A DNA stretch of 64,000 nucleotides from Candidatus Aminicenantes bacterium. Its GTDB lineage: Bacteria > Acidobacteriota > Aminicenantia > Aminicenantales > UBA4085. Below the pieces are notes generated by a model. The model worked only from the letters and a program-made list of their open reading frames with translations, was not told the origin of the DNA and ran no database searches. The stretch covers positions 971,701-1,035,700 of the forward strand of contig CAWANZ010000002.1 of assembly GCA_963783665.1 (NCBI GenBank), in the 5' to 3' direction. Position 1 is the first letter of the stretch. Each line of letters starts with the position of its first letter. Positions 4,933-64,000 of this stretch are shown here, piece after piece. Made by a program: the position numbers and the translations under genes.

Positions 4933-4944
4933 AAACCGGACGGG

Positions 4945-8054: not shown

Positions 8055-8065
8055 GGGAGGCCCGC

Positions 8066-11574: not shown

Positions 11575-11733
11575 GCGTCCCGCCGCCTCGAACCGTAAGA
11601 AGGTCTCCCGGGACGCGAGTTCTTCGCCGCCAATCCAGGCCAATCAAGAAAAGCCGTTGAGATCCGGGCGCGTGAGCGAAGGTTGCAGTGACGGCCGATA
11701 AGCCGAGCCGCAATCAACTTACGGTCAGGAAAA

Positions 11734-12060: not shown

Positions 12061-12230
12061 TCTCCTTTCCCTTCGCGGGAATGACCTCCCCCGATATACG
12101 AAAATCGCGACGGGTTTGTTTATGCCGCGGTCTTATGCTATCTTCAAGGCCGTGAACGTCCGGTACGAATTCGTCGGCTTCGGGACGCGATGTCGCTCCG
12201 CAGCCGGGCCGCCTCGTCCTCGACGTCGGG

Positions 12231-13201
12231 ATGGCCCAGGCCCCCGGCATCCTCGACCATCATTTCCCCGAAGCCGAAAACGAATGCGCGGCCTCGCTCG
12301 TCGTCAAACACCCGGAACTCGTCCTGGACCACCTCCGTCCCGGCGGCCGTCCGGCCGACGCGTTCGGCCCGGTCACGATCGTCACCCATGTCCTGCCCGA
12401 CTTCGACGCCCTGGCCGCGATCTTTCTTTCGCTTCCGGCTTCTCGAGACCGGCGAAGTGGACGAGGGGATGCGGCGGCTGGCCGCTTACACCCGGACCGT
12501 CGATGCCTCGCTTCTCCCTCCGACGATCGACCTCGGCGGCCACGCCCTACGCCGTCCTCCGGGCGTTGTTTGCCGGCGTCGAAGAAACCGCTGGACGAAA
12601 TCAACGCCGACCGGATCGCCGAGGGGATGAAATTCATGAAGATGCTTCATGCCCGGGCGGCCGAAGGCGGGGACATCTCGAGGACCGGACTCTCTTTTCC
12701 GGAATCGACCGCTACGAGCAGGCCGTCCGCAAAGTCGAGGGGGACAACGCCTGGTACCAGGGCGACGCGCATCATGCCCGGAAAATCATGCTGAACCTGC
12801 CCAAAGTCCGGGGGCGGGCCGGACGCTCGTCGACGGGCTGATCGTCGTCGACGCCCACAGCTTTCTCCTCAAGGAATGGGCCAGGCGGGACCGGGACGGT
12901 TCGCCCCTCGGACGGGGATTCAGCTTCGTGTATTCGAACTATCAGGGACTGCGCCACAGCCTCGGCGTCGATCCGGCCGCCGGGGTCAATCTTCGCGGGT
13001 CTGGCCGAGAGCCTCAACAGCTTGGAAGCGAGGAAAGCCGAGGCCAGGGGGAAAACAGACCGGGTCCGCTGGTACGGAGGGGAATGCCCGTTTTTCAATT
13101 ATCGGCTGGTCGTTTCCCCCCACGAAGGGACGCGCCTCTCCTTCGAGGAAATCTCCGGAGCGGTGCATGAGATTCGGGGCGGTCGTCCCCACGACCGCTG
13201 A
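12231..13201 (+). CDS. hypothetical protein, fragmented over three frames; function unknown
   Basis: Protein-like stretches in successive frames: MAQAPGILDHHFPEAENECAASLVVKHPELVLDHL ... VTIVTHVLPDFDALAAIF; FSGIDRYEQAVRKVEGDNAWYQGDAHHARKIMLNLPK; VDGLIVVDAHSFLLKEWARRD ... GFSFVYSNYQGLRHSLGVDPAAGVNL; and SLNSLEARKAEARGKTDRVRWYGGECPFFNYRLVVSPHEGTRLSFEEISGAVHEI before the stop at 13199-13201. No family could be assigned. Confidence 0.3.
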
Positions 13202-13216
13202 GTCCGGATCCGGATT

Positions 13217-14401
13217 TCAAGCCAGCCGGCGTCCTTGATGTTTCCGGGAGATGGTTTCCGCCAGCTCGTCGATCGCCTGGAAATCGGTTTCCTTCGGCAC
13301 TTCCCTTGACGAGGAACGGCGGCAGGATTTCGGCCTTGAGATTCGGCAGGAGGCCAAGGACCTGCTCGGCCATCTTCTGTCCCCAGCCGTAGGAGCCGAT
13401 CAGGGTCGCAAACTTCGCCTTCGGCCGGAGGGCGTTGGCCAGGAAGGCCGCATGCGCGACGTTGGGATGGAGGCCGACAAGGACCGCCGGTGAGCCGAGG
13501 ACGATCGTGCGCCGCATCCACCAGGGATGAGAGCCAGCTTCCCGAGGTCGACATTCGCCAGGTTGAATTGAGGACGGTCACGCCCCGTTCGGCCAGAGCG
13601 GCGACCAGACGTCCGACCAGCAGTCTCCGTGCTCCCGTGCATCGAAACATAAGCGATCACCGCTTCGTTTTTCGGAGTTTCGGAAATCCAATCGCGGTAG
13701 GCGTCGAGGATGAGGGCCGGCCGGTTGTAGACCGGGCCATGGCTCGGGGCGATGAAGTCGATCGGCCAGACCTCCGATCCGCTCCAGGTTTTTCTGGATG
13801 GCCGTCCGGAACGGCATCATGATCTCGGCGAAATAGCGCTTGGCCGCAAGGTAGATTTCGCTTCTCGTCCCGGACGAAGATCTCCGACTGGGCAAGATGC
13901 GAGCCGAAGAAATCGCAGGAGAACAGGATCCGGTCTTCCCGCAGGTACGTGCACATCGTCTCCGGCCAGTGGACCCAGGGCGTATGGACGAACTCGAGGG
14001 TTTTATCGCCGAGCGACAGAGTTTCCCCGTCGGCGACCGTGACGATCCGCTCGGCGGAATCCCGAGGTGGTCCATCAGGATGCCCTTGGCCTTGGGCGAG
14101 CAGACCAGGATGGCCTGCGGATATTTGGCCAGGATGACCGGGATGCGAACCGCTGTGGTCCTGTTCGCCGTGATGGGCGACGAGGTAATCCACGACCGTG
14201 GACATTCCCGAGATACTCCAGCAGGATCTCGATTTTGGCCGGATCGACTGTGTCCAGCAGGGCGGTTTTTTCGCTTCCCCGGACGAGGTAGGAGTTGTAG
14301 CTGGTTCCGTCGGGGAGGGGGATCAGGGAATCGAATAGCCGCCGGTCCCAGTCCACGGCCCCCACATATTCGACCGAATCGACGATGCGGCGGGGTTTCA
14401 T
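13217..14401 (-). CDS. flavodiiron protein (FprA / flavorubredoxin family: metallo-beta-lactamase-like domain plus flavodoxin domain); several frame changes
   Basis: MBL-like N-terminus: [54 protein letters not shown]. Diiron site region: [13 protein letters not shown] ... [32 protein letters not shown]. The flavodoxin-like C-terminus follows: [20 protein letters not shown] ... LPPFLVKGS. The parts are spread over ORFs 14075..14500, 13657..14205, 13578..14075 and 13095..13517. Confidence 0.8.
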
Positions 14402-14468
14402 GCGAAGTCCTTTCCGGCCCTGGGCCGAATCAATTCCTACTAATTCTATAGGATTAAAATTCGCTTTG

Positions 14469-14970
14469 TCAACGGGACAGCCGGCGAACGATCGCGGCAT
14501 GGTTCGGGAAGCGGGCGATCAGGTCGTCACGGCGGCCCAGCTCGAAATCGGAAAAGTCGAAGCCGGGAGCGACCATACAGCCGAAGAGAGCCCAATCGTC
14601 CGGCCCAGCCCCCTCCGCTCCGAACCAGCAGCCTCCGGGGATCACCGCCTGGAACAGCTCCCCGGCCTCGAAATTCCGGCCCAGCGGAATGATCCGGTGG
14701 GTTAAGTCGTCGAAAAAACAATGGATGTTGAGCCCCGTCCCGTCGTAGAAATGCCAGATCTCGTCGGCCTTGATCCGGTGAAGGTTCGAGCGCTCGCCCG
14801 GGGCCAGGCAAAAATAAACCGATGTCGCTGCGGCCCGCGGGCCGACGAACCGCGCCGGCAGGGCTCCCGCCGGGATCAAATCGTTGGACCGGTAAATTTC
14901 CCGGTAATGGCCCCCTTCGGGATGGGTCTGCAAGTCGAGAAGGCGGATCCAATCGGCCGCTGTTTTCATG
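14469..14970 (-). CDS. cupin-fold protein of the DUF985 family
   Basis: About 166 aa from [34 protein letters not shown] lies 4 nt upstream of the ATG at 14970. Confidence 0.55.
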
Positions 14971-16251
14971 CATCCTCCTTGACTGTCGGCCGATTGTTTT
15001 GGTCGTGGATCGTTCCCCGGGCCAGCGAGGCGAAGAGGCCGGCCAGGCACAGGCCGCGCACAAAAAGAAGATGATCCGGGCAGCGGAGAGGAACCCGGGA
15101 TGAACTTCCGGGGTGATGGGGACCCGGCCGATCTGGAGAGCGAAGATCAGCGTGGCCAGGCCCATGCTGATCATTCTCGCCGGTGAGCCGCATCGTCGCC
15201 AGCAGGGCCGAGGCGACGCCATAGGCCCGTTTGTCCACGGCGCCCATGACCGCATTCGTATTGGGCGAGGAAAACAGGGCGAAGCCGAATCCCAGGACGA
15301 GCAGCACGATGACAATGAAAGCCGACGAAGTCCCCGCTCCGCATCCGGCCAGCAGGAGCAACCCGACCGTCAGGATGCCCATCCCCGAGGACGCCAGAAT
15401 CCGGGGTTCGACCCGGTCGGACAGCCGCCCGGCCAGGGGGGAAAACATAACCATCATCGCCGGCTGGGCCAGAAGAATCAGCCCGGCCGTTTGCGGCGTC
15501 ATGCCCTTGATATATTGAAGGTAAAGGCTCAGGACGAAGCCGATGGCCATCGTCGCACTGTAATTGATCAGGGCGGCCAGCCGTTCCCGAAAGCGTAAAG
15601 GAAAAACCGGGCCTTCCCCAGCCCAGAAAAGCTTCAGAGTCAAGTCAGCGGGCCGATCCGCCTTTCACCGAGGTCCACTTCCTCGCTCTTTAATTTCCAG
15701 GCGACCAGCAGGACAACGACGAATTCGAGGAAGGCGATGACGGCAAAAATGCTCCTCCAGCCCACGGTGCTGGGTCATCGCCCCGCCCAGGACGGGCCCG
15801 AGGGAAAGCCCAGGTACGTGAAGGAGACGTTGATCCCCAGAACGCGGCCCCGCTCGCCCGGCGGGTAGACCGAGGTCAACATGGCCATGCCCGTGCTCAT
15901 GACCATGGCCCCGCCGATTCCCTGGAACGCCCGCCCGATCAGGAAGGCGGCCGTCGATCCGGAAAAGATCACGCCCGTCGAGGCAACGCCGAAAATCAAG
16001 CTGCCCCAGCCGAAGATCTTTTTTCGCCCGGTGACGTCGGCGATCTTCCCGAAGGGGACAAGACAGACGGCCGCGGCCAGAAGGTAGGCGTTGGCGATCC
16101 AACCGAGGGCGACGGATGACATGCCGAATTCCCGGCCGATGACCGGAATCGCCACGTTCAAGGCCGCGGCCATGAACGGCGTGATAAAGGCGGCGATGGT
16201 GGCCAGGACCAGGACGATCCGGCGCTCTCCAAGAGTGATTTCGTGAGGCAT
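14966..16251 (-). CDS. MFS transporter (DHA-type); frame changes in the central region
   Basis: N-terminal half in ORF 15775..16293 (from MPHEITLGERRIVLVLATIAAFITPFMAAALNVAIPVIGREFG; GRAFQGIGGAMVMSTGMAMLTSVYPPGERGRVLG). C-terminal half in ORF 14966..15643 (LSLYLQYIKGMTPQTAGLILLAQPAMMVMFSPLAGRLSDR). Total length about 428 aa. Confidence 0.7.
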
Positions 16252-28768: not shown

Positions 28769-28782
28769 GGAATTTTTTTATT

Positions 28783-29045
28783 CTCTACCCCTCCTACCGC
28801 CCCTAGGACTCGGGGCGGACGGCACGTCAGCCTATTAACAGGAATTCATTTTAGTTCCGAGGAGGCGTAACAAGATCGTTCCTTAGATCTTATCCCCCCT
28901 TCCCCCCTTCCAAGAAGGGGGGCCCCGAAATGTCCGCCTACAAAAAGGAATTTATTTTAATTCCGAGGAGGCGTGACAAGATCAATCGATCTTATCCCTC
29001 CCCCTTCCAAGAAGGGGGCCCCGAAACACGTCCGCCTCCTCGTAA
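28783..29045. repeat. cluster of composite GC-hairpin repeat units (two alpha hairpins, one beta hairpin and two AT-hairpin linker segments) directly 3' of tRNA-Ser(GCT)
   Basis: Beta unit: ctaccgcccctaggactcggggcgg (28793-28820), stem ccgcccc/ggggcgg. Linker ggaattcattttagttccgaggaggcgtaacaagatc is repeated as ggaatttattttaattccgaggaggcgtgacaagatc. Alpha units: cttatccccccttccccccttccaagaaggggggccccgaaa (28880-28920; stem ccccccttc/gaagggggg, loop caa) and cttatccctcccccttccaagaagggggccccgaaa (28994-29029). Homologous copies lie at 60318-60470 and 62205-62630. Confidence 0.6.
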
Positions 29046-29052
29046 TAAGGTA

Positions 29053-29143
29053 CGGAGAGGGCGGGATTCGAACCCGCGGTCCCGGTTTTAGCCGAGACAA
29101 GCGCTTAGCAGGCGCTCCTGTTCGGCCACTCCAGCACCTCTCC
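29053..29143 (-). tRNA. tRNA-Ser (anticodon GCT), class II with a long variable arm
   Basis: Reverse complement reads GGAGAGG-TG-CTG-GAGTGGCCGAA-CAG-G-AGCGC-CTGCTAA-GCGCT-(22-nt variable arm)-GCGGG-TTCGAAT-CCCGC-CCTCTCC-G. The 7-bp acceptor, 3-bp D stem, U33, anticodon GCT and A37 are all consistent with Ser. CCA is not encoded. Confidence 0.85.
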
Positions 29144-29479
29144 GCGGCTGCGAAGTCCCGGCTATTCTACCATTTGCCGGAAGGCGGAAACAACCGGAAC
29201 CATCTTAGCGTATTTCCATCCGTCGTTTTTTCCCCTTTTTGCCTGTCGAAGAACGACCCTACATTTGGGATTTTTGAAAACACTTGGCTCGTCTTCGCAT
29301 ATTGTTCTTCGCCGCAATCCAGGATCGGAAAGCCGGTACAAATTACCGGCCTCGAATTAGAGACCGACCGAATAGGCCGCCATATTCTCGTAACTACGAC
29401 CCACACAAATCCGGACATGAGTACCAAAAATAGTTCTATTAATTGGATAATTTCACTTGAGAAAAATCAACAAAACCCC

Positions 29480-30687: not shown

Positions 30688-32096
30688 ATGAGTCTCAAGA
30701 AGCTGGCCATTCTCATCATCGTGATCGTCCTGACGATCATCGTGGCCATCTCATGCAAAACGCAAAACATCATGCGGGGGGCCCATCGGGAAGACCGGGC
30801 CGGATGGACGTTGGTCCACCTGGAAGGCGCCTCCCGGGAGATCGGCTACCAGCACGGCCGGTTGCTTGCGGCCGAGATCGACGACCTTTTAAAAGCGATG
30901 GCGGTCAACCTGGAAAAGACCACCGGGCGCGACTGGCCGTTCTTCCGCAAGGCGGCCGAAACCATCCTCTGGCCGAAGATCGATCGGCCGGTTCAAATGG
31001 AGATCGAAGGCATCGCCGAGGGGCTTGCAGGCCGGGATCCCCGGATTGAAGTATGATCGATTCGATATCGCCGCCCTCAACGGCTGGATGGAGCTGGCCT
31101 GGTACTACGTCCCCGTCCTCGAGGCCGAAAATAAAGGGACGGCGGTCGAATCGAAGGCCCCCCCGTCCTGCAGCGCCTTCATCGCCACCGGGAGCTATAC
31201 CGCGGACGGCCGGATCGTCATCGCCCACAATATCTGGATGGATTACCTTACGGGCGAGCGGTGGAACGTGATCCTGGACATCGTCCCGGACACCGGGCGG
31301 CGGATGCTCATGGACGCCCTGCCGGGATTCGTCCACAGCGGCTCGGACTTCGCCTTTAACGACGCCGGTCTCCTGTTCACGGAGACGACGATCGCCAAGT
31401 ACGCCGGCTTCAATAAGGACGGCGTCCCCAGCTTCTCCCGCTCCCGCACGGCCGCCCAGTACGCCGCTTCCATCGACGATTTCATCCGCATCATGACGAC
31501 GAACGGAAACGGGGCGATGGCGAATTCCTGGCTGATCGGCGATCTGAACGCCAACGAAATCGCCCGGCTCGAGCTCGGGCTGAAAAACCACCGGGTCTGG
31601 CGGACGGGCGACGGGTATTTCGTCGGATCCAATTTCCCCTCCGACGAGAAGCTGATCGCCGAGGAAACAACCTTCGACCCGGGCGACGGGAGCCAATCGG
31701 TCTTCGTCCGGCGGGACCGCTGGGAGCAGCTCATGGCCGAAAATAAAGGGAAAATCGACATCGAAAAAGCCATGGCCTTCCTCGGCGACCATATCGATCC
31801 GAGAACGGGCGAAACCGCCGCGGGCGCCGACGCGACTCTGCGGGCATGTCGACCGGGATCCCAAAGGCGCGCCGGAATTCTTTTATCCGCCCTTCTGCCC
31901 GGCCGGCTCGACTCAGGGCAAGGCCACTTCGGCCGCCTTGGCCGAACAGATGAAATTCTGGGCCCGGATGGGCCACGCCTGCGGCGAGGATTTTGCGGCC
32001 GAGCCGTTTGCCGCCGCCCATCCCGAATTCGCCTGGCAGCTTCCTTACTTGAAAGACATGAAAGCCCATCCCTGGACCCTCTTCCAGGGGAAATGA
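30688..32096 (+). CDS. peptidase C45 / acyl-CoA:6-APA acyltransferase-like Ntn-hydrolase lipoprotein; two frame changes
   Basis: Lipoprotein signal MSLKKLAILIIVIVLTIIVAISC. Putative N-terminal nucleophile context PPSCSAFIATGSYTADGRIVIAHNIWMDY. The family-typical length and motifs are spread over ORFs 30688..31056 and 31025..32107 plus a third frame that ends ...HPWTLFQGK at the stop 32094-32096. Confidence 0.6.
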
Positions 32097-32109
32097 ATTC
32101 GGAATAATT

Positions 32110-32167
32110 CGGGGCCAGGTTACTCAACTCCCGAACCCGAGATCGGGAGTTGAGTAACCTGGCCCCG
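32110..32167. repeat. perfect palindromic element (MITE/REP-like): 25-bp arms cggggccaggttactcaactcccga with a 7-nt spacer
   Basis: Left arm 32110-32134, spacer acccgag, right arm 32143-32167 is the exact reverse complement, followed by atctttt. It lies 14 nt after the C45 stop. The same arms recur at 37861-37919 (full), 37297-37321 (half) and a diverged relative at 33892-33976. It also creates two artefactual ORFs that start MSNLAP on both strands. Confidence 0.8.
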
Positions 32168-32234
32168 ATCTTTTACCGATCTATTATGGAATATCGGCTT
32201 CCGCTGATCGTCTTTTTATTGGAGAATAAAGACG

Positions 32235-33846: not shown

Positions 33847-33889
33847 CCCCGGACCGGTTTCCCCACGAAAACCGGCCCGGGGCTTTTTA
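33847..33889 (+). terminator. rho-independent terminator-like hairpin followed by a T run
   Basis: ccccggaccggttt-ccccacg-aaaccggcccgggg, followed by cttttta. It lies immediately after the 33817 stop. Confidence 0.55.
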
Positions 33890-33891
33890 TT

Positions 33892-33976
33892 GGTGCCAGG
33901 TTAACCATTCCCCGATTAATTCAAATCTCCGGCGTTCGCGAAATAGGAGAATGGTTAACCTGGCACCGATTAAATA
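33892..33976. repeat. second palindromic element related to the 32110 family: 20-bp terminal inverted repeats around a 44-bp core
   Basis: tggtgccaggttaaccattc (33892-33911) and its exact reverse complement gaatggttaacctggcacca. The arms align with cggggccaggttactcaactcccga (shared gccaggtta-c-c...tcccga). The right flank cgattaaatac is tandemly duplicated. Confidence 0.7.
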
Positions 33977-35383: not shown

Positions 35384-37294
35384 ATGAATAAAAACCTGAT
35401 ATTGAAGGAATGGAAGGAAAAGCTCTGGGTTCCGATTTTCGCCCTGGTTTTTCTCGTCCTGTTCGCGATCGCCGCCGTCGCTTTTGCCAAGCACGGAGAC
35501 ATCCTCGATTATCTGACCGGCGGGATCCAGATTTTCTTCCTCCCGCTCATCGGCGTCCTCCTCGGGGCGAGCGCCTTCAGTGCCGAATTCAAGGACGGCT
35601 CCTGGGCTTATCTCTTTTCCCGGCCGATTAAAAAATCCTCGATCTGGATTTCGAAATTCGCCGCCCTGGCCGGCCTGCTGGCCGCAATCGTCGCCTTCAC
35701 GTATCTCATCCTTCCCCTCATCCCCGGCTTCAAAGAACGCCTGGCCGAAGCGCCGCTCTGGGGACTCAGCCTTTTTATTTCGTTCAGCGTGTATATCGCT
35801 TCCTTCTCCCTGGCCTATCTCTCTGAAAAGCCGGTCCTCACTTTTTTTCTGACGCTCTTTATCTTCACCGCCTTTGCCGTTCTCGCGGTACTCCTTATAA
35901 AAGCCCTCGACTTTTCTTCTTTCAGGTCCCGCTCCCTTCAGGACGTGCCGTTTCTTGTGATTCTATTCACCTTTCTGGGCATTTTCGCCCTCGGTGCGGC
36001 TTCGCTTTACGCCTTCTGCCGGACGGATTTTTCCCGCCCACAGTCCAAGATCTCCGGATTCCTGAAATCCCTCGTCGTCTTCCTGGCCATCGGGACGGTT
36101 ACCGGCGGCGCTGGATGGCTCATCGCCCGGCAATTCCCGCGCCCAACGTTTATTCGCATGATTTCCGACGGAGAAGGTTCCATACTGCATCTCAACCGGG
36201 GAGTCTTCCGTTATGATTCCCAGCGCAATCGGTTGGAGAAATTGATCCGTTTCCAAAGACAATACTGGCTTGCCAGCCCCGCAGTCGGCGGCGGAAAAAT
36301 CACATGGGCCAAGGAATCAGTCAAAGGTTCAAGGCAGCGGCTAACTTGGGACCAAGAGCTCTGGATCATGGATATCGATGGCCGCAACAAACGGGCTATT
36401 TTTCATACCTCAGACAAGCCCGATTCCCCGCTTGCCGGAGACATGATTTATCATCTCAGTGTCTCACCCGATGGGAAACGGCTGATTCTGGTTTCCGATC
36501 CGGGATCACGATCGGGACATAAAAGAATTTGTAGCCTCAACAACGATGGGACGGGTCTTCGCTTCTACAGCACCGATCTTACTTACCTCGACTGGATCAA
36601 CGGCCTGTGCTGGTCATCAGACAGTCGAAGGATCGTGTTCGCGGCGACGATCAGACCGTCTGAAAGAGCTTCAAACAAACAAACGATCCGATATTTTCTC
36701 CTGGACCTGGAGGCCGGAGAATGGACCATGCCGCCCGAAGACCTCAGAGGATTCTCTGTCTATGGCGCGTCGCCAGATGGCAAATTGCTGGGTTACTTCG
36801 GGACCGACACGGCCGATGCCGCCTCCCCGAAAGAGATGCTCCGCTATTACAATATCGATACAAACGCAATTTCCGACATCGTCGCCGTTTCGCGCATCCA
36901 GTTGGCTAAATGGAGCCCGGCGGGTGATCGGATCGCTTTCCTTGCCGACTCCGGCCGCCGCCTGGGAATCATATCCGTTTCTGAAAAAACGCTTCTTGCG
37001 GAAACAGCCCTTGAAAAAGCCGAAATTGAAGCCCGCATTCCGAGGTCCATGGCCTGGACCTTGGACGGACAGAAGATCATTCTGGCCGATTTCCGCAATT
37101 CCGTACACGTCCTGCGGATCTTCGATCAGGCTCTCCGCGAAATCAAATCATTCCCCATTCCTCGGGAAGATATCCCTCTCGAGCATCTCCCGCAGCTTTA
37201 CTCGACCGGGGATAAGATCCTCGTTATGGATTTCACCGCCTCCCGGCTCTGGTCCTTCGACCCGGCCACGGAGAAGTGGAAGAAGCTGCTTTGA
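35384..37294 (+). CDS. ABC-2-type permease (6 TM) fused to a C-terminal TolB-like beta-propeller (PD40/WD40-like repeats)
   Basis: Intact 636 aa within the frame of ORF 34859..37294, from MNKNLILKEWKEKLWVPIFALVFLVLF. Six hydrophobic segments up to about aa 290. Then repeated HLSVSPDGKRLILVSD / YGASPDGKLLGYF / AKWSPAGDRIAFLADS motifs typical of TolB/PD40 blades. Confidence 0.65.
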   Translation: MNKNLILKEWKEKLWVPIFALVFLVLFAIAAVAFAKHGDILDYLTGGIQIFFLPLIGVLLGASAFSAEFKDGSWAYLFSRPIKKSSIWISKFAALAGLLAAIVAFTYLILPLIPGFKERLAEAPLWGLSLFISFSVYIASFSLAYLSEKPVLTFFLTLFIFTAFAVLAVLLIKALDFSSFRSRSLQDVPFLVILFTFLGIFALGAASLYAFCRTDFSRPQSKISGFLKSLVVFLAIGTVTGGAGWLIARQFPRPTFIRMISDGEGSILHLNRGVFRYDSQRNRLEKLIRFQRQYWLASPAVGGGKITWAKESVKGSRQRLTWDQELWIMDIDGRNKRAIFHTSDKPDSPLAGDMIYHLSVSPDGKRLILVSDPGSRSGHKRICSLNNDGTGLRFYSTDLTYLDWINGLCWSSDSRRIVFAATIRPSERASNKQTIRYFLLDLEAGEWTMPPEDLRGFSVYGASPDGKLLGYFGTDTADAASPKEMLRYYNIDTNAISDIVAVSRIQLAKWSPAGDRIAFLADSGRRLGIISVSEKTLLAETALEKAEIEARIPRSMAWTLDGQKIILADFRNSVHVLRIFDQALREIKSFPIPREDIPLEHLPQLYSTGDKILVMDFTASRLWSFDPATEKWKKLL

Positions 37295-37296
37295 AT

Positions 37297-37321
37297 TCGG
37301 GAGTTGAGTAACCTGGCCCCG
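37297..37321. repeat. solo half-copy (one arm) of the 32110-type palindromic element
   Basis: tcgggagttgagtaacctggccccg begins 3 nt after the permease stop (tga 37292-37294). The flanks gaat...gaatta match the full copy at 37861. Confidence 0.6.
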
Positions 37322-37341
37322 AATTATCGGAATGCGGAAGA

Positions 37342-37839: not shown

Positions 37840-37860
37840 TCACCGGTATTATAACGAAAT

Positions 37861-37919
37861 CGGGGCCAGGTTACTCAACTCCCGAATTCGAATTCGGGAG
37901 TTGAGTAACCTGGCCCCGA
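37861..37919. repeat. second full copy of the palindromic element; a perfect 59-bp palindrome
   Basis: cggggccaggttactcaactcccga-attcgaat-tcgggagttgagtaacctggccccg. The spacer completes the palindrome (cccgaattcgaattcggg). It lies in the divergent region between the PAP2 (minus) and kbl (plus) starts. Confidence 0.8.
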
Positions 37920-37996
37920 ATTACTTTCCTTGTGGTATCATGATGTCAGACGGCTGCCCGGACGGCCGGGCCTGACCGGGCACGAGGAGGATTCCC

Positions 37997-44969: not shown

Positions 44970-47223
44970 CTACCGCCCTCCGGCCGGCAAATATTCCATC
45001 AAGAATCCGTACCGCAGCGTCTCCAGGTGCGGCCCGCCGATCCCGTGCCGCCGGTTGGGATATTCCATGAAGTGAAACTGTTTGTTGAGCTCGATCAGGC
45101 GGTTGAGCAGCCTCTGCGTTCCCTGGAAATGGACGTTGTCGTCCCCCGTGCCGTGGATGATGAGAAGCTTTCCGTGAGAGTCCCTCGGCGAACTGAATCG
45201 GCGACCCGTCATGGTATCCTTTGGCGTTTTCGGCCGGCAAGCCCATATACCGTTCCTGGTAGATCGAATCGTAGAGCGTCTGGTCCGGAACCGGCGCTCC
45301 GGCGACGCCGACTTTGTACAGCTCCGGGCGAGCGGAACATCAGATTGAGGGTCATCGACCCGCCGCCGCTCCAGCCATAAACGCCGACCCGAGTCCAGGT
45401 CGACATACGGATGCGAGGCCGCCAAAGCCCGAAGAGCCGCGGCCTGTTCTTTCGAAGCCAGGACGCCGACCGAGCCATAAATGACTTTGCGCCAGGCCCG
45501 GCCTTTGGGCGCCGGCGTGCCGCGATTGTCGAAGCTGGCGATGAGGTAGCCCTCGTCGGCCAGGGCGGCGCTCAGGAGGCGCCCGTTTCCGCCCCAGCTG
45601 TCGGTCACCGTCGTTCCGGCCGGTTCGCCGTAAACGTAGACGATGATCGGATATTTTTTGGCCGGATCGAATTTCGCTCGGCCGGATGAGCCAGCCGTCG
45701 ATTTTGACCCCGTCGTCGACCGTCACCTGGAACATCTCCGTCCGGCCGGCCAGAATCGGCCCGACCTTCGCCTTGCAGCGCCGCGTTATCGGTGAAAACG
45801 CCGGACCGCCTTGTGGTCCGGAAGACGGATCATTTCCGAAATGTTCGGCACGGCGAAGGCCGAATAGCCATGGAAGGCCCAGCGGCAATCGGGCGAGAGG
45901 TTATAGGTATGCGACCCCGGATCCCGGCCGGCGTCACCCGCTCGGTCTTGCTCCCGTCGAGGCGCGAGCGATAGAGATACCGCTGGGTGGCGTTTTCCGG
46001 CGAGGCGTTGTAATATAGCCAGCCGCCCGCCTCGTCGATTCCGGCGATGGAGATCAGGTCGAAGGGCTCGCGTCGTGATGAGCCGGGTCTGGCCGTCGCG
46101 TGAGACGGCGTAGGCGTGGCGCCAGCCGTCCCGCTCGCTGACGAAAAGGAGCGCCTTCCCCTTTTCCAGCCAGATGAATTCGATCGTTGACATCCACCCA
46201 GGCTTCGTCTTGGTCCGCGATGCATCAACCGCGATTTCCCCGTCTCGGCGTCGGCCAGGAAGACGCTGTTTCGTATTCTGCAGCCGGTTGAGGTGCTGAA
46301 AAATCACCTCCCGGGAATTTTCCGCCCAGGCCATCCGGGGGATGTAGATATTCCGGGGATCGCCCGGCGCTTCGATCCAGCGGGTCGGACCGCCCGCGGC
46401 CTCGACCACGCCGATCCGGACCGCGGCGTTTTGCTGTCCGGCCTTGGGATAAGGATATTTGGTGATCGACCGGATAGAGGGCATCGGTATAATTGATCAG
46501 GGCGAATTCCGGAACGCCGCTCTGATCGAACTGAAAGTAGGCGATCCGGCGGCCGTCCGGGCTCCATTCGAATCCATCGCGCAGGCCGAATTCCTCCTCA
46601 TAAACCCAATCGGAGGTGCCGTTGATGATCATCGGCGAGCCGTCCGAGGTCAGCCGGATCGCGGCGCCGCTTTGGATATCTTCGACATAAAGGTCGTTGT
46701 CGCGGACATAAGCGGCCTTCGTTCCATCGGGCGACAGCTTGGCGTAAAGAACCCCGGCCGGGGCGGATCGCGGCCAGCTTGCGCCAGGAACCGTCGGTCA
46801 TATCGAGAACCCAGTAATCGAAGGCGGTTTTCCGGATCATGGTCGGGCGCGGATTGACGGAAAACAGCATCTTCTTCCCGTCGAGGGACGTTTCATACTC
46901 GCCGAACGGAGAGCGGTTTCCCAAGCTGGGGCGGCGTCAACCGGTCGGCCGCCATCCAGACCTCCCGTTTCCCGGTCGCGGTATCGTATCGGACGATTTC
47001 GGCGGCACCGGCTGCGTTCCGTTCGATCGCCGTATAGGCGGCTCCGTTTTCGATCCAGCGGCCCGACCCGCCGCGGGCGGCGGCGAATTCCGAAGTGCCG
47101 AGCCGGCGCATCCATTCCTGCAAGGTGGGCGTGACCTGGGCTGAAGCCGAAAGCGCGCCGAAAGAGAACGGCGACAATCCCGACCGCTCGCACGATGACC
47201 GAATGAAACGTCTTGTTTTTCAT
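44970..47223 (-). CDS. S9-family serine peptidase (DPP-IV / prolyl oligopeptidase-like: N-terminal beta-propeller plus alpha/beta-hydrolase); many frame changes
   Basis: Signal MKNKTFHSVIVRAVGIVAVLF. Propeller-region pieces in ORFs 46893..47177, 46598..46924, 46225..46632 and 45786..46484 (e.g. IINGTSDWVYEEEFGLRDGFEWSPDGRRIAYFQFDQSGVPEFALINY). Catalytic domain: RVGVYGWSGGGSMT (GxSxGG), LLIIHGTGDDNVHFQ and FMEYPNRRHGIG. Confidence 0.75.
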
Positions 47224-56110: not shown

Positions 56111-57311
56111 ATGAAAGACCGCATCTCCATCTACCAAATCGCGGCCAAAAACCTGCTGCGGAAAAAGACCCGCACCCTCGCTGACCATCCTCGGGATCGG
56201 CCTGTCGGCCTGGGTCCTGACCAGCCTGTTCGGCTTCAACCGAGGCTACGAGGAAGCCCTGAACAAGGACATCGACAACATGGGCTTCCAGGTCCTTCTG
56301 ACGGCCAAGGGCTGCCCGTACGAAGCGGCCACCCTGATGCTCAAGGGCGGGACCGGCCTCCGCTACATGCCCGAGGCGGTCTTTGCCGACATCCTGAAGA
56401 ATCCGGAAGTCGAGAAGATCACCCCCATGCTGATGCAGGCCGTCTTCGACCCGAACAAGGGCGAAAGCGGCGGGATCAGCGCCTACCTCGGCGTCGACCC
56501 GGCCACCTATCCGGCGATGAAATCGTTCCTCGAGTTCCGGCAGGGCGCCTGGTTCACCGACCCGGACAGCCACGAAGCCGTCCTGGGGTACGAGGCGGCC
56601 GAGCTCGAGCAGCGCGAGGTCGGCGACAAGATCCTGGTCACCGAGAAGAACATCGAATACACCGTCGTCGGCATCCTCGGCCGCTCGGGAACCCAGGACG
56701 ACGGGACGATCTTCGTCCCGATCCGGACCCTCCAGAAGGATTTCGCCCAGGAAGGGAAGGTCACGGCCGTCGGGATCAAGGTGAAAAAAGAGGCCAACAT
56801 CGTCGAATTCGAGAACAAGCTCTACGACCTGCCCGACGTCCAGGTCGTCTCCATGGCCCAGGTCAAGACGACCATCATGTCGCTCGTCTCGACGGCCAAG
56901 GTCATGGTCTTCTCCATCGCCCTGATCGCCATCCTCATCGCCATGCTCGGGGTCATCAACACCATCCTGATGTCGGTCTTCGAGCGCTTTCAGGAGATCG
57001 GGATCATCAAGAGCATGGGGGCCATGCCCTGGGACGTCTTCCGGATGATCTGGACCGAGACGGTCATCCTGTGCCTGCTGGGCGGGACGATCGGCGTCGG
57101 CTTCTCCTTCGGCATGGCCAAGCTGACCGACCTTCTCATCCGCCGGCTCCTGCCCTACACGCCGACCGGGAGCCTGATCATCGTCAACGGCCGCCTGGCC
57201 CTGATGACCCTGGGCATCGTCCTCGTCGTCGGCCTCGTTTCGGGCTTGTACCCGGCCTGGCGGGCCGCCCGGGTCCGGCCCCTTGAATCCATCCGGAGCG
57301 AAGGAGAATGA
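56111..57311 (+). CDS. MacB/FtsX-type ABC transporter permease; one frame change near 56180
   Basis: N-terminal TM (corrected: RTLLTILGIGLSAWVLTSLFGF). Large periplasmic domain. FtsX C-terminal module: IALIAILIAMLGVINTILMSVFERFQEIGIIKSMGAMPWDVFRMIWTETV ... VSGLYPAWRAARVRPLESIRSEGE. Confidence 0.8.
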
Positions 57312-57313
57312 CC

Positions 57314-58009
57314 ATGGCGACCCAAAGCGTCCCGCCCTCGAAGCCCAATCCCTGCGGAAAGTCTATCATCGCGGCGCCGAAGACATCGTCGCCGTCGACG
57401 ACATTTCCCTGTCCGTGGCCAAAGGCGAATTCGTCTCGTTCATCGGCCCCTCGGGCTCCGGGAAGACGACCCTGATCAACCTCCTCGGCTGCCTGGACAA
57501 TCCCACCTCCGGCACGCTTGCCCTTTCGGGAGAGACCGTTTTTTCCGCCTCCAAGTGCCTCTCGGAATCCGATCTGACCCGGATCCGGCGCCGCGTTTTC
57601 GGCTACATTTTCCAGAAGTTCTATCTCGTCCCGACTCTGACCGTCATGGAAAACGTCCTCCTCCCCTTCGCTTTCTTATAAAAAGCCGAATATCGTCGCC
57701 GACCCGCATGGACATCCTGCCGGTCTCTCGGGATGGAGAAGCGCTTCGACCACAGACCCGGCGGAGCTTTCCGGCGGTGAGATGCAGCGGGTGGCCATCG
57801 CCCGGGCCCTCATCAACAAACCCGAGATCCTCCTGGCCGACGAGCCGACCGGAAACCTCGATTCCAAGCGGAGCGAGGAGATCGGCCAGGTCCTCAAGAC
57901 GCTCAACGAGCGGGACGGCCTGACGATTCTCCTCGTCACCCACAACCCGATGCTGGCCGGCTTCGCCCACCGGACGATCGCCCTCCGTGACGGCAAGGTG
58001 GAGGGATAA
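57314..58009 (+). CDS. ABC transporter ATP-binding protein (MacB/LolD-like); one frame change near 57335
   Basis: AAGGAGA RBS, ATG 57314. Walker [12 protein letters not shown]-loop [17 protein letters not shown]. Signature [15 protein letters not shown]. Walker [14 protein letters not shown]-loop LLVTHN. The stop is at 58007-58009. Confidence 0.8.
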
Positions 58010-59164: not shown

Positions 59165-60317
59165 TCTCTCCGCGACACGGTTTCTCTTTTCCTTGACAGG
59201 CTCTTTAAGGCCGCGTTATATTCAGTTCATCGAACTGATAGGGCGGGGCATGAAACGCAAACGCGGAATTCGGGCGGCGGTGATGGTCGGCTTGGCGAAA
59301 ACGATACCCTCCGGAGCTCTTCGCCAATGATATCCAACGGCTAATCGTGGATGCGGGCATCAACCTGGCGGTTGTGGCAGGCGCAGGTAGAATTGTTCGA
59401 CACGCCTTCCACCGATCGCTGCCAGGTTTCCTACGCCACGAATGCGTTCAATGCCATTGTGGAAATCCGAAGCCGGCTCATCGGCCCCATGGACAATATC
59501 AACCTGCAGTCCGATCTCGATCAAATCAGCATGTACCCGGCCGCCACGGAAAGTCAGAGCGCCGTCACCGGGCGAGCAATGTCCACGGCATTTACTGGCT
59601 GTTGCGAAGCCGGCTGTCCGTGCTCTTCCTTTCGACCCGCGGGATTTACGCCAGCCCGAATTGCGACAGCTCCTTTCTGGACGTCGGCTATTACTTAGGC
59701 CGGGGGCGGATAGGAGCCTTTGCAAACAACGAATACGTGATGTCGAACGCTCCCGCGCCATGATGCTCGAGGCCATCGGGGCTGGAAAAGACTTGGCTGT
59801 GCGCTGCCCCTGCACCTACAACGTGGAAAACGCGGTGGGGAGCGATTCCATGGTCAACGCCAGAACCTTGGAGGATTTGAGAAGCTCGTCGAACCGAGCA
59901 AGGGGACCGCGGCCGTAGCTTAACTGGTTTTCCCGAGGGATCTCCGATTTCGCCCTGGTCCCCGCTCAGTTCCACTCCCCCTCCGCCTGCGCCGAATCCT
60001 TCGGCTTCCCTCCTCGGGACGTGGAGGATAGGAGACCGGGTCGACCACGATTTTCGCCCAGGCGGGGAATATGAATATCGGGACAGCACAAAACCTGGCG
60101 TCTGTCTTAATTAATCTCGGCTACCGAGAAGGGATGAACATTCCGAATTCACGGGCGGTTCCCAGGGCGTTTATACGGGCCAGATGAACATACGTGGCTG
60201 CAGACGGCAATTTCCTTGCAAAAATTGGCGCGTCACGGTGAGCGGGAACACGGCCACGTTAAGCGATATGTTCGAAGGGGGCCGGGCCACGTATACCGCC
60301 ACAGAATCCAGTGATAT

Positions 60318-60470
60318 TCCCCCCTTACTGATAAAGGGGAATTCGTGAGAGTAGGACGAGGGCGCCTCGCAAGACTCAACCATAAATTCTCTACCCCACC
60401 TACCGCCCCTAATACAGGGGCGGACGGCAGGACGGCGCCCCTCAGTGAAAGTACGAGGGGGGGGGGATTA
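60318..60470. repeat. third locus of the composite GC-hairpin repeat family (one alpha-like and one beta unit) at the border of the AT-rich islet
   Basis: ccccccttactgataaagggg hairpin (60319-60340). ctaccccacctaccgcccctaatacaggggcggacggcagg (60395-60435; stem ccgcccc/ggggcgg), followed by a G10 homopolymer (60457-60466). Confidence 0.55.
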
Positions 60471-60822
60471 GAATAATCACGGCCGCCTGCCTGATAATAG
60501 TCATTTCTCGGGGAAATATGCCGCGGACAGACCGTCATTGAGCGCCACAAATAGACACTCTCTGTTACATTTTGAGGGACATTATTTCCGTTCAAATATT
60601 CCCTTCGAAAATAGTCTCTGCGGACCGCAATGAGGTTCGTGGCGCGTCAGTCTACCCTACCGTCTATATCACTCTCCTGGACGCAGAAATATATCAAGGC
60701 GTACTTTATTAAAAAGAGATTCTCGGCATTCAAAGAGAAAATATATGTTGATATATATTATTTTCGCTTCTCAAGCATTAAATCGGATTATTATTCAACC
60801 TTACCGTTATATTCGATAATTC

Positions 60823-61943
60823 TCATTCATATATACCTTTGATTAAGTTGTAATTATTAATTTTCACTATTACTAATTTACTTTTTTCTTCATCATCACT
60901 ATTATTTTTTATTATTGCATATATCATTCCTTCCTTAATTACCTTCGGAAATACTGGAAATTGCACTTTATATAAATAAAGCGCATCTTTCCCAATAATA
61001 TCAATCTCCTCTTGAATATCGTCATCGATTATCGATTTTTTTCTCTAATAACATATATTAGTCCTTTTTCATCGGATAGCAAACCACTTATAAAAGGACG
61101 ATTTTCAGGAATATTAGGAGTAATTTTTATTTGTACTCCAGATATTTTAGTATTATTCACTATCTTTTCTATTGCGTTTTTCTCTTCGATGCTAACTTTT
61201 TGGGGTTTTTGTTTTATCGAAATAGATTCTTTCATCGTCCCGTCTTCATCATATGAAAACACTTGATAATTTGTATTATCTGCGTACAACAAACCATTTT
61301 CATTTATTATTGAATAAAAGGCTCGTTTTTTATAAGGGTGACTAATAGATATATTTATCTCACTTATTTTTGTGCTATTTTCATCAATACTCAATGAAAC
61401 GATTTGCCTTTCAGCCTTTCCATTTGAATTTATTTTATATAATGCAAGCTCATTATTATTGCTCACATCTCTTCTCATCGTATACATTAAACACATTTTA
61501 TTAATACATACATCGTATTCTGGAAGTAATAATAAATTAATATTTTTTTGAAACGTTAGATTTTTGTCAAATAAGACAATTTTATATCTATCAAATATAT
61601 AAATGTTTCCCAAATAATCACAAGATACTTTATTGGGTATTTGTTGAAACTCTCCAGGCTCTTGCCCGAATATGAATTTTTTACTAACGATTATTTCACT
61701 ATCTTTGCTAATTTTTAATATATAAGCATTCGTAATCGCAATAATATTTTCCTCAATATCTACATCAAAATCATATGCCTCATAGTTTTCAGTATTATTA
61801 ATAAATATTGGAAATTCAAGTACAGTTTTTTGCTCATACTCAAGAAGAAATTCTCCATATATTGGCTTTGGCATATTAATAATACTTTTAATATTATCGA
61901 ACGAAGCAATAATAATATTAAATAACAATATTAGAGAAATCAT
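60823..61943 (-). CDS. low-GC lipoprotein-like beta-propeller protein (resembles Bacteroidetes 6-bladed beta-propeller / BF3164-type lipoproteins); one frame change at a T7 run
   Basis: About 30% GC versus about 65% for the window. AGGAGGA RBS, then ATG 61943. N-terminal hydrophobic MISLILLFNIIIASF. Repeated blade-like IYIFDRYKIVLFD / GLLYADNTNYQVFSYDEDG motifs. The ORF stops at 61029, but one extra T in the T7 run (61036-61042) continues it for 69 codons (KKSIIDDDIQEEIDIIGKDALYLYKV ... NYNLIKGIYE) to a stop at 60823-60825. Confidence 0.55.
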
Positions 61944-62204
61944 ACTTTCCTCCTAATAATGGCAGTGTTAGGAAATCTGTGTAAACCGCTTATTTCCATT
62001 TACGCTTGTCCCCCCATCCGATCATCGAAATATATCATTAACTGGGAATATATCAGTAGCGCAGTCTCTCTGCCGAAAGGTCCATTATTTCTGCAGCATC
62101 TTCCACGGTGAGGAAGACTTGTTTGAGGCTCTGGATCGGATTCATTGTATAGACCATGATCCGGATTTCCGGAGGATATTTAAAAACAGACTAGGAGCGG
62201 TTGG

Positions 62205-62630
62205 CCGGAACTGCAGGAAATATTTTATTCCGAAGACGCGTGCCAAGATTTTTCTTTCCTAACTCCCAAGGGTCGTGAAGGACCGGCAAAGCCTCGAGAT
62301 CTTATCCCCCCTTCCCCCCTTACTAATAAGGGTGGAGTTTGTCAGCGCTAAGACCGGGGTGCTTTTAAGACTTTTCTTATTGGTATCTACCTATCCTACC
62401 TTCCCTAGGACTAGGGAGAGGACGGCTAAAGCCGGCAGGAAGTATTTTATTCCGAAGACGCGTGCCAAGATTTTTCTTAGACCTTATCCCCCCTCCCCCC
62501 TTCCAAGAAGGGGGGCCCAGAAAACTGAAAGTTAGCGCCCCTTTTGCCCGGAGCGCTCACAATTTTCCTTAGGTCTTATCCCCCCTTCCCCCCTTACTAA
62601 TAAGGGGGGAATTCGTCAGCGCTCCGGGAG
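62205..62630. repeat. array of composite GC-hairpin repeat units (three alpha hairpins, one beta-like unit and two AT-hairpin linker segments) directly 3' of tRNA-Ser(TGA)
   Basis: Linker ggaaatattttattccgaagacgcgtgccaagattttt occurs twice (62218-62255 and 62441-62478). Alpha units: cttatccccccttccccccttactaataagggtgg (62293-62330), cttatcccccctccccccttccaagaaggggggccc (62484-62520) and cttatccccccttccccccttactaataagggggg (62571-62607). Beta-like unit: cctaccttccctaggactagggagagg (62393-62420). The last unit ends 7 nt before the tRNA 3' end. Confidence 0.6.
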
Positions 62631-62636
62631 AGGTTT

Positions 62637-62724
62637 CGGAGGGAGGGGGATTCGAACCCCCGTTCCGGGGATACCGGAAAGCGGTTTTCAAGACCGCCGC
62701 CTTCAACCACTCGGCCATCCCTCC
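62637..62724 (-). tRNA. tRNA-Ser (anticodon TGA), class II
   Basis: Reverse complement reads GGAGGGA-TG-GCC-GAGTGGTTGAA-GGC-G-GCGGT-CTTGAAA-ACCGC-(long variable arm)-GGGGG-TTCGAAT-CCCCC-TCCCTCC-G. It has U33, anticodon UGA and A37. The listed ORF 62569..62778 on this strand is an artefact of it. Confidence 0.85.
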
Positions 62725-62734
62725 GATACTCATA

Positions 62735-64000
62735 TCAAATCGACATGGGACAAGATGAACGCCATCGTGGCCGGCCAAGAAAAGATCGTTCCTTCCCGCT
62801 ATCCCCCCGTTTCGGGGAGCTTTTATGATCGGGTAATCCGGGCAACCCGTTCATGTAGGGGCGCAAAGCCTGGGGAATGTCGATCGCCCCGCTTTCGTCC
62901 TGATAATTCTCGAAGATCGCGGCCACGGTCCGGCCGACGGCCAGGCCGGATCCGTTGAGCGTATGGACGAATTCCGGCTTGGCCTTGGGATCCCGGCGGA
63001 AGCGGATATTGGCCCGGCGGGCCTGGAAATCGCCGCAATTGGAGCAGGAGGAAATCTCCATGAAGCCCCGACGCGTCGGCATCCAGACTTCCAGGTCGTA
63101 GGTCTTCCGGCTGGCAAAACCCATGTCCCCGGTGCAAAGGGCCATGACCCGGTATGTCAGGCCGAGGCGCTTGAGGACCTCCTCGGCGCCCGCGGTCATG
63201 TATTCGAGCTCCTCCATCGATTTTTCGGGGAGGGAGAAGATCATCATCTCGACCTTGTTGAACTGGTGCTGGCGGATGAGCCCGCGGATATCCTTGCCGT
63301 AGGAGCCCGCTTCCGACCGGAAGCACGGAGTATAGGCGGCAAACCGCCTCGGCAAGGCCCCGTCCATAATCTCGTCGCGGTAGAGGTTCGTCAGCGGCAC
63401 TTCGGCCGTCGGGACGAGATACCAGGGCAGACCCTCCAGCTTGAACAGGTCCTGGGCGAATTTCGGGAGGTTTCCCGTCCCGGTCAGGCTCGCCTCGTTG
63501 GCGATGAACGGCGGAACGACTTCGGTGAATCCCCGCTCCCGGGTGTGGATATCGAGCATAAAATTGATCAGGGCTCGTTCCATCCGGGCTGCCGCGGCCA
63601 TGTAGACCGTGAAGCGTGAGCCGGTGATTTTCGCCGCCCGGTCGAAATCCAGGATCCCGAGGGTCGTTCCGAGATCCCAATGGGCTTGTGGCTCGAAATC
63701 GAAACTCCGGGGCTCCCCGAGCCGCCGAACCTCGACGTTTCCCCCGGCGTCAAATCCCACCGGGACGGAGTCGTCGGGCAGATTGGGGATATTGAGAAGC
63801 GTCATCCGGATCTGATCGTCTAAGGGCTTCAGCTCCTCTTCCAGCACCTTGATCCGGTCGCCGACCAGCTTGGTTTCGGAAATGAGGGCGGACGCGTCGC
63901 CGCCCGAGCGCTTGAGTTTGGCGACCTCTTCGGAGGCCTTGTTCCGCTGGGCCCTGAGGTCCTCGACCTTGTGCAAGGCAACTTTCTTGGCCTCGGACAG
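62735..64000 (-). CDS. serS: seryl-tRNA synthetase; the 5' end lies beyond the window; a C-terminal extension is possible from a late frame change
   Basis: N-terminal coiled-coil ...[20 protein letters not shown]. Class II core: [56 protein letters not shown] and [22 protein letters not shown]. The usual C-terminus [11 protein letters not shown] is followed by about 35 extra residues before the stop at 62735-62737. Confidence 0.85.

Follow-up and report, generated by a model that had tools for sequence, protein, structure and literature searches.

How does a GC-rich bacterial genome come to carry a single, strongly AT-rich gene beside one of its serine tRNA genes, and is that gene still intact? 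The question is raised by a 64,000-nucleotide stretch of contig CAWANZ010000002.1 (GenBank assembly GCA_963783665.1, positions 971,701 to 1,035,700), which in its full length is called the window here. Its seryl-tRNA synthetase (SerS) is 92% identical to that of one relative (L001) and 77–79% identical to those of three others (L002–L004), followed by dozens of further Aminicenantes metagenome-assembled genomes, and this similarity places the window in Candidatus Aminicenantes. The islet in question holds one gene (60,823–61,943, minus strand), predicted to encode a secreted six-bladed beta-propeller, and lies close to tRNA-Ser(TGA). An earlier note on this DNA, made from the letters alone, had proposed horizontal acquisition beside a tRNA from a low-GC donor. 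We conclude that the islet was probably acquired horizontally from a low-GC donor of the same phylum and now sits in an array of tRNA-Ser trailer elements, with its gene likely intact. The foreign composition of the islet, the absence of the gene from the corresponding locus of relatives and the variability of the site largely bear out the earlier proposal. The islet is an ordinary small gene-transfer islet of a familiar type; its value is that of a clean, bounded example of gene transfer in an uncultured, GC-rich Aminicenantes genome, with a source that appears to lie among the low-GC lineages of its own phylum.

The GC content was scanned in 200-nt windows across the trough and in 1-kb windows over the rest of the 64 kb. 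From values of 0.52–0.62 outside, it falls to 0.24–0.30 at ~60,700–61,999, with shoulders of 0.36–0.48 reaching ~60,600 and ~62,100. The AT-rich segment, taken as GC below 0.45, spans 60,600–62,100, with a core at 60,700–61,960, and only this trough contains 1-kb windows below 0.45 within the 64 kb. The remainder averages ~0.61 (range 0.53–0.66). The drop described earlier is thus real and deep, but the host stands at ~61% rather than 65% GC and the gap is ~33 rather than 35 points. The propeller gene is the sole gene in this patch of ~1.5 kb. Its GC contents at the three codon positions are 0.36, 0.22, and 0.20, respectively; the third-position value (GC3) of 0.20 compares with 0.70–0.93 in host genes, in agreement with the AT-biased codon usage noted before. 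The copy most similar to it, on contig L081, has values of 0.38, 0.23, and 0.25. The neighboring tRNA-Ser(TGA) (62,636–62,725, minus strand) was recognized also by Rfam, and serS (62,735–64,000, minus strand) lies upstream of it on the same strand and runs past the window end. The distance from the tRNA to the start codon of the propeller gene was measured to be 693 bp, close to the ~700 bp given earlier for the islet.

The order serS, tRNA-Ser(TGA), spacer, tRNA-Ser(GCT) was found in more than 20 Aminicenantes loci, with ~50 bp to 9 kb separating the tRNA genes in these relatives. In the window this spacer measures 33.5 kb, and tRNA-Ser(GCT) is located at 29,052–29,144 on the minus strand. 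No close relative of the propeller gene follows serS in any of 79 serS loci, the more than 20 Aminicenantes loci included, and the gene is therefore not ancestral at this position. This synteny comparison at serS/tRNA-Ser had been suggested as a check. The nearest relatives that can be read at the site share 77–79% SerS identity; the contig of the 92% relative, L001, ends inside serS. By tblastx, L004 is colinear with the window: serS and tRNA-Ser(TGA) are followed by gene X (30,772–32,093 in the window), tRNA-Ser(GCT), and then the window from 26,344 downwards, without any of window 32.1–62.6 kb. An extra segment of ~30.5 kb (32,100–62,635) therefore separates gene X from tRNA-Ser(TGA) in the window and is absent from L004, and a different 7.3 kb occupies this place in L002. 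In L004 there is also a 330-nt AT-rich insert (3,993–4,400, GC ~0.42) directly after the tRNA-Ser(TGA) trailer, with a 69-residue open reading frame (ORF) on the opposite strand; a direct repeat of 13 nt, AACGCTGACGATT, bounds the insert and reproduces the 5' part of the trailer. Between the tRNA-Ser genes of L010, at 11,266–15,345, lie a low-GC gene of 182 residues and a type IIG-like restriction-modification gene of 1,169 residues. The varied spacers and inserts make the site a hotspot, and the spacer between the tRNA-Ser genes is a recurrent landing site in this group. The L010 insert looks like defence cargo at the same hotspot, and the extra ~30.5 kb of the window consists of housekeeping-type genes of normal GC.

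Hairpin repeats flank the trough at 60,317–60,440 and 62,189–62,628. The earlier note had treated such repeats as the boundaries of the islet. They are indeed present on both sides, but they also follow tRNA-Ser(GCT) and are not specific to the island; judged from their sequence and covariation, they have arisen by amplification of a structured trailer that is conserved after tRNA-Ser genes. T1 (62,547–62,628), which adjoins tRNA-Ser(TGA), is a complete copy: its outer stem pairs 62,547–62,557 with 62,618–62,628, and its inner part holds a C6-loop-G6 hairpin and then a second G6 run. Over 63 nt, T1 matches the flank of tRNA-Ser(TGA) in L004 at 89% identity. By repeat comparison, two partly degenerate trailers, T2 (62,435–62,515) and T3 (62,213–62,349), were recognized, with a second hairpin module, D9 (62,382–62,416), between them. 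A truncated D9 (62,189–62,209), read by comparison with the intact R44b-D9 junction, is the last repeat-derived DNA on the tRNA side. The far side holds another D9 (60,386–60,440) and a partial trailer, T4 (60,317–60,349), in the same orientation as the copies on the tRNA side, all of which read on the minus strand. The minus-strand order is thus tRNA-Ser(TGA), T1, T2, D9, T3, truncated D9, unique DNA at 60,450–62,187, D9 and partial T4, and on this order the islet lies inside an amplified trailer array. Such an arrangement would be compatible with recombination at repeated trailer copies or with repeated integration at an attachment site in the trailer.

A strict core motif of the trailer occurs in the window only at the two tRNA-Ser flanks, with 9 nested matches against 0.34 expected. 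The second flank, together with tRNA-Ser(GCT), forms a block at 28,780–29,144 on the minus strand, in which 28,780–29,030 holds separate trailer and D9 copies. Equivalent elements follow tRNA-Ser(TGA), tRNA-Ser(GCT), or both in L002, L004, L005, L017, and L025, sometimes in tandem. Individual trailer coordinates are 28,885–29,040 in the window, 11,402–11,500 and 20,517–20,660 in L002, and 3,980–4,070 and 6,134–6,190 in L004. The element is ~80–95 nt long and consists of a ~10-bp outer stem, the C6-loop-G6 hairpin, and the second G6 run. Among 8 copies with hand-registered arms, 9 of the 10 outer-stem pairs change on both sides and 95% of the outer-stem cells are paired; choosing the arms by eye favors the percentage paired, but not the two-sided, compensatory changes. 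None of 500 shuffles reached the observed covariation, and it collapsed in the slid controls. RNAalifold applied to a MAFFT alignment of the trailers missed the outer stem and was set aside in favor of counting pairs on the hand-registered arms. A known RNA family was also considered for the hairpins and rejected: over this region Rfam returned only the tRNA, plus a sub-threshold sX4 match overlapping the tRNA. The element may act as RNA, in the role of a trailer or a terminator, or as DNA, in the role of a recombination site. It deserves a description of its own and, with the inter-tRNA hotspot, is a more unusual by-product of this work than the islet.

The assembled ORF of the islet (61,029–61,943, minus strand) encodes 304 residues, and a second open frame follows at 60,823–61,044. 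With one further base in the T7 run at 61,036–61,042, the two join into a protein of 373 residues, as the earlier note had suggested. The first ~310 residues of the relatives found by phmmer always pair with the 304 residues of the query, the homologues align through the junction to the C-terminus, and the downstream frame keeps the family-invariant residues. This alignment across the junction confirms the frameshift diagnosis. For annotation, the gene should be read as one secreted propeller of 373 residues and not as a 304-residue protein or a lipoprotein.

The corrected protein matched nothing in Pfam or NCBIfam, even at E = 1. In a word-indexed homology search it retrieved, besides itself, only the distant P0002 (23% identity), which matches PF17170 at E = 1.2 × 10^–14. 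An exhaustive phmmer search returned 177 relatives, typically of 360–400 residues. Two of these, P0007 (E = 2 × 10^–26) and P0010 (E = 4 × 10^–18), carry PF17170; the islet protein does not reach the threshold of this model, and neither do P0153, P0004, P0005, and P0009, which form its closest subfamily. An AlphaFold2 model built with 12 family sequences is all-beta, with a predicted local distance difference test score of 83.9 and a predicted template modeling (TM) score of 0.82, and its last blade is the part encoded after the frameshift. The best matches of the model in the PDB, found with Foldseek, are six-bladed NHL propellers: Brat, TRIM2/3/71, Thin, peptidyl-alpha-hydroxyglycine alpha-amidating lyase, and virginiamycin B lyase. 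These NHL matches reach E = 6 × 10^–13, with TM scores of 0.6–0.67 on the target, and for the Brat and TRIM NHL domains the Foldseek probability is 1.00. By sequence alone, a family profile searched against the PDB also detects NHL domains, with the TRIM2 NHL domain at E = 1.9 × 10^–23. The model, the structural matches, and the profile match agree with the fold that had been guessed at the outset, and the islet protein is accordingly predicted to be a secreted, NHL/DUF5128-like six-bladed beta-propeller.

NHL propellers such as those of TRIM2/3/71, Brat, the PknD sensor domain, and the amidating lyase are thus the best structural matches, but the identity is only 10–16%, and the window protein is bacterial, secreted, and single-domain, with an extra helix at residues 252–263 and no assignable catalytic or binding residues. 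With the PF17170/BF3164-type lipoproteins of Bacteroidota it shares the predicted fold, a length of ~370–400 residues, and a G-x-G-P-G-E-F motif. It differs from these in falling below the Pfam model, in having no lipobox, and in that its named relatives belong to Aminicenantes and not to Bacteroidota. Its N-terminus (MISLILLFNIIIASF) contains no Cys, the first Cys being residue 108, and appears to be a plain hydrophobic signal or anchor; the homologues have ordinary Sec-type signals with no conserved lipobox. The designation as a lipoprotein was therefore dropped.

All named relatives of the propeller are Candidatus Aminicenantes, and low-GC Aminicenantes-like contigs carry family members of native composition, so that the description of the protein as Bacteroidetes-type is not supported. 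The closest relative (P0003/P0153), at 81–82% protein identity, is encoded in a Candidatus Aminicenantes metagenome-assembled genome (GCA_016931595.1) and in an independent Logan assembly (SRR13394437; contig L081), with the same arrangement in both. The DNA shared with L081 (60,708–61,956, minus strand) is 84.4% identical over 1,259 nt. The similarity begins at the ribosome-binding site, 13 nt upstream of the ATG, and continues more weakly to ~60,668, where the L081 contig ends; the flanks are unrelated. In L081 the copy has a GC content of 0.287 inside flanks of 0.59–0.62 and follows an S41 peptidase gene, a 758-residue gene, a PAP2 gene, and a 185-residue gene, starting 16 nt after the preceding stop. 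At 37% identity, P0004 is encoded on a contig of 0.60 GC (L082). Its gene belongs to a tandem pair of AT-rich paralogues there (GC 0.32 and 0.34), with an uncalled cysteine-rich secreted ORF of 74 residues between them. P0005 and P0009 reside on contigs of 0.33–0.35 GC, where their composition matches that of the host. The NDK encoded beside P0009 on low-GC contig L094 shares 70% identity with one from Aminicenantes; the named match after it, from Spirochaetes, stands at 55%. P0007 and P0010 lie on contigs of 0.43–0.44 GC, and P0010 is annotated as a 6-bladed beta-propeller of a Candidatus Aminicenantes bacterium. Contexts of homologues were sampled one protein at a time. Propellers of native composition were found in L083–L094, low-GC (33–45%) Aminicenantes-like contigs. 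None of this points to a Bacteroidetes source. The contexts are read most simply as a transfer into high-GC Aminicenantes from low-GC ones, with a donor of low GC within the phylum as the probable source.

The following course of events may be proposed. A low-GC Aminicenantes donor would have carried the propeller gene together with a gene for a Cys-rich peptide and often a thioredoxin-fold (AhpC/TSA-like) gene. The transferred DNA would have comprised the propeller gene together with the ribosome-binding site and the 3' flank belonging to it, and only the propeller would have arrived or been kept; because it is present alone in the window, the islet would be an orphaned fragment of the donor module. 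The landing site would have been the amplified trailer hairpin array within the highly variable stretch that separates tRNA-Ser(TGA) from tRNA-Ser(GCT), and recombination at or between repeated trailer copies would be the most likely route of insertion. Genomic islands associated with tRNA genes have a deviant composition, lie next to the tRNA at a site that varies among relatives, are flanked by direct repeats, and carry accessory cargo, and the islet shares these features. Unlike such islands, it is only ~1.5–2 kb long, with one gene and no integrase found; its repeats derive from the structured trailer downstream of the tRNA and not from the tRNA 3' end, and its position is within a repeat array, 693 bp away from the tRNA.

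Several observations weigh against this account. No mobility gene, tRNA-derived duplication of an attachment (att) site, or clear target-site duplication was found, and no insertion mechanism is therefore supported. The identification of the donor draws on few named or context-typed contigs. The subfamily has AT-rich members in three distinct GC-rich settings, namely the window, L081/L090, and L082. The synonymous divergence (dS) between the window and L081 copies is 0.44, with a ratio of nonsynonymous to synonymous divergence (dN/dS) of 0.22, and both copies retain a GC3 of 0.20–0.25, which does not fit a single very recent transfer. At the frameshift, the window (AGAGAAAAAAATCG) and the intact homologue in L081 (AGAAAAAAATCG) differ by 2 nt in length, which is not a simple homopolymer change. 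Finally, a nearly invariant Gly of the family is replaced by Glu in the window copy (G95E). Either repeated transfers from related donors or long persistence with little amelioration is needed to accommodate the age of the L081 pair. The recent acquisition claimed in the earlier note is thus bounded only loosely: a foreign origin stands, but an equally AT-rich copy, 84% identical and at dS 0.44, occupies another locus of a second GC-rich genome.

The G95E change falls in the hallmark motif, in which G-Q-G-P-G-E-F reads G-Q-E-P-G-E-F (61,657–61,665, codons 93–95); it may be a true substitution or a further assembly error.

The alternative that survives best concerns the state of the gene. The islet might be a dead relic, a pseudogene fragment of an older insertion in the course of decay, with a real frameshift. 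The interrupted ORF, the 2-nt difference from L081, and G95E would suit this, as would the absence of the module's partner genes beside the window propeller and the broken look of neighboring DNA at 59,351–59,918. However, no further stops follow the frameshift: the downstream frame remains open for 73 codons and preserves all family-invariant residues. Relaxed constraint was not seen there either, dN/dS being 0.21 before the frameshift and 0.28 after it. The low values on both sides indicate purifying selection over essentially all of the divergence, tail included. Equivalent frame breaks, moreover, are present in conserved host genes of the window. In gene X there are two frame changes at short G/C runs, and all three pieces are 54–63% identical to L002. 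In serS, a 38-residue C-terminal extension vanishes when one base is added, giving an end, ...MNGL(A/P)RITRS*, that matches the ...M[DN]GLERIS* of relatives. The frame-change evidence consists of these targeted checks of gene X and serS; automated detection of frame changes against the ORFs of relatives was dropped, as it was confounded by antisense ORFs in GC-rich DNA. Given the breaks in other conserved genes, we rate the propeller frameshift, with good confidence, as an assembly indel, and the dead relic as unlikely, although it keeps appreciable weight. The 2-nt difference would reflect either an extra in-frame codon together with an under-called A8 (an assembly error) or a real 2-nt insertion. 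With purifying selection and a likely assembly error taken together, the propeller gene is probably intact and functional in the organism.

Short homopolymers in conserved genes coincide with frame changes at 30,772–32,093, at 44,970–46,632, at 57,283–57,923 (an ABC ATPase gene), and at 62,840–62,860 (the 3' end of serS). The gene at 44,970–46,632, for a DPP4-like dipeptidyl-peptidase, appears by eye to be split over several frames. The genes otherwise remain well conserved; such changes are typical of unpolished long-read assemblies, and apparent pseudogenes in the window are suspect; frameshifts of this assembly should not be annotated as pseudogenes.

A second alternative retains horizontal acquisition but ascribes it to a site-specific integrative element that used the tRNA-Ser trailer as its att site and whose integrase has been lost or acts in trans. 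The trailer copies at 62,297–62,349 and 60,317–60,349 would then be attL/attR-like repeats of one or more integrations. These direct repeats of 33–53 nt are 87–92% identical, have one orientation, bracket a 2-kb segment, and match the tRNA-proximal copy; the content of the site varies among relatives, and L004 has its separate AT-rich insert with a 13-nt repeat directly after the same trailer. Against an att function, the repeats exclude the tRNA 3' end, being trailer copies without tRNA sequence, and they occur also without cargo: they are amplified after tRNA-Ser(GCT) too and stand in tandem without cargo in L002 and L025. The AT-rich copies in L081 and L082, moreover, do not lie beside trailer elements. 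The trailer was not found in viral contigs and the propeller family was not found in IMG/VR; a phage origin, considered separately, was rejected on these two results.

A recombinase of such an element was not detected either. In line with the earlier note, 29.5–60.3 kb yielded no domain of an integrase, excisionase, or transposase. This was determined with Pfam for coding-like ORFs selected by GC3 at 29.5–59.2 kb and for all six frames of 59,165–60,330, where zero domains rejected a suspected integrase remnant; positions 1–29 kb, which are syntenic with relatives, were left out of the scan. The domains identified at 29.5–59.2 kb were all of housekeeping or regulatory kinds: ECF sigma, GntR, ABC transporters, aminotransferase, BlaR/BlaI, isochorismatase, S8, FKBP, and MacB/FtsX. 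Upstream of serS in the 92% relative are OmpA-like, GH2 beta-galactosidase, and DapA-like genes, with no recombinase by eye. We regard an integrative element of this kind as doubtful, and the preferred reading of the islet remains acquisition into the trailer array, most likely by recombination at or between its copies.

A third possibility, that the propeller is a long-resident gene of the lineage whose AT-richness is maintained by selection or by local mutational conditions, draws on the AT-rich members in three GC-rich contexts, two of which still show GC3 values of 0.20–0.25 at dS 0.44. We judge it very unlikely: the three contexts are not orthologous, the gene is missing from the orthologous serS locus of every relative examined, and members in low-GC hosts match the composition of those hosts.

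It is at least conceivable, though we give it very little credence, that the AT-rich propellers are promoterless mobile cassettes which cross a 30-point GC gap and are captured at trailer repeats by a recombinase encoded elsewhere. Such cassettes would imply an integron-like capture system with a tRNA trailer as its recombination site. Integron cassettes and clusters of attC sites lacking integron-integrases (CALIN) share with the islet a single ORF, a stretch of shared DNA that starts 13 nt before the ATG, and imperfect palindromes of ~80 nt nearby. In contrast to these systems, no IntI was found, there is no ORF-attC array, and no R''/R' cores are evident; by eye, GTTRRRY/RYYYAAC was not found at the hairpin ends. 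Unlike attC sites, the palindromes here are tRNA-Ser trailers that are present without cargo in relatives.

The weakest alternative, a chimeric assembly in which DNA of a low-GC organism was joined into a GC-rich contig, could appeal to the indel-prone assembly and to the low-GC relatives in the metagenomic source material, but it is scarcely credible because it needs two junctions within 1.5 kb, host-specific repeats stand on both sides, and two independent assemblies of another genome join the same AT-rich gene to GC-rich Aminicenantes genes.

The function of the propeller may be approached through the genes that accompany its relatives. In P0007 and P0010 the module consists of an AhpC/TSA-like gene, a DUF5128 gene, a gene for a Cys-rich secreted peptide of 75–96 residues, and a second DUF5128 gene, and genes for Cys-rich peptide partners were found in L082, L083, L087, and L094. 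On the low-GC contigs such a peptide gene usually accompanies the propeller gene, and a thioredoxin-fold gene often does. For the peptides, Pfam and NCBIfam gave no match. The recurrence of the module suggests a system for handling disulfide-rich peptides, and the predicted fold together with the partner genes of the relatives suggests an extracytoplasmic, peptide-binding or peptide-processing role for the propeller. Distant members of the family also occur near serS in other Aminicenantes, as in Saccharicenans L014.

Some minor features of the window remain to be listed. A terminator-like hairpin with a T-run (60,618–60,630, minus strand) lies ~190 nt past the stop codon of the propeller gene, as a consensus match only. 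A 14-nt direct repeat that brackets the AT-rich core, AGGGACATTATTTC at 60,575 and AGGTCCATTATTTC at 62,078, was considered as a target duplication and not adopted; its chance expectation is estimated at ~0.1–0.2, and its position differs from that of the L081 boundary. An HTH-like (helix-turn-helix) peptide of 34 residues at 62,060–62,165 (MVYTMNPIQSLKQVFLTVEDAAEIMDLSAERLRY) was considered as an excisionase remnant and rejected, with zero Pfam matches at E ≤ 5 in either continuation frame. On the other side of the islet, where only fragmented reading frames had been reported at 59,200–60,317, a stretch at 59,351–59,918 (plus strand) does have coding-like GC3 periodicity, with two changes of frame. 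Neither a homologue nor a domain was found for it, and the stitched peptide of 182 residues gave zero matches among 5.8 billion proteins.

The window also contains a second repeat family of near-perfect palindromes with arms of 32–43 nt, AATTCGGGGCCAGGTTACTCAACTCCCGAA and its complement. Copies are located at 32,092–32,185, 33,885–33,974, 37,290–37,327, and 37,857–37,923, and the first of these sits exactly where the extra 30.5 kb begins on the left.

The recurrent module of the relatives spans 7,528–12,811 in L083, 7,370–11,137 in L087, 8,548–11,134 in L082, and 701–2,178 in L094. Its components are the thioredoxin-fold AhpC/TSA-like protein, a DUF5128 propeller, a secreted peptide of 74–96 residues with 8–12 Cys, and a second propeller. 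In L082, three pairs of genes at 2,826–8,278, each for a secreted peptide of ~50 residues (MKKAL...FKGTLDQAVAKAK...) and a TPR protein of ~400 residues, are found directly upstream of the AT-rich propeller pair.

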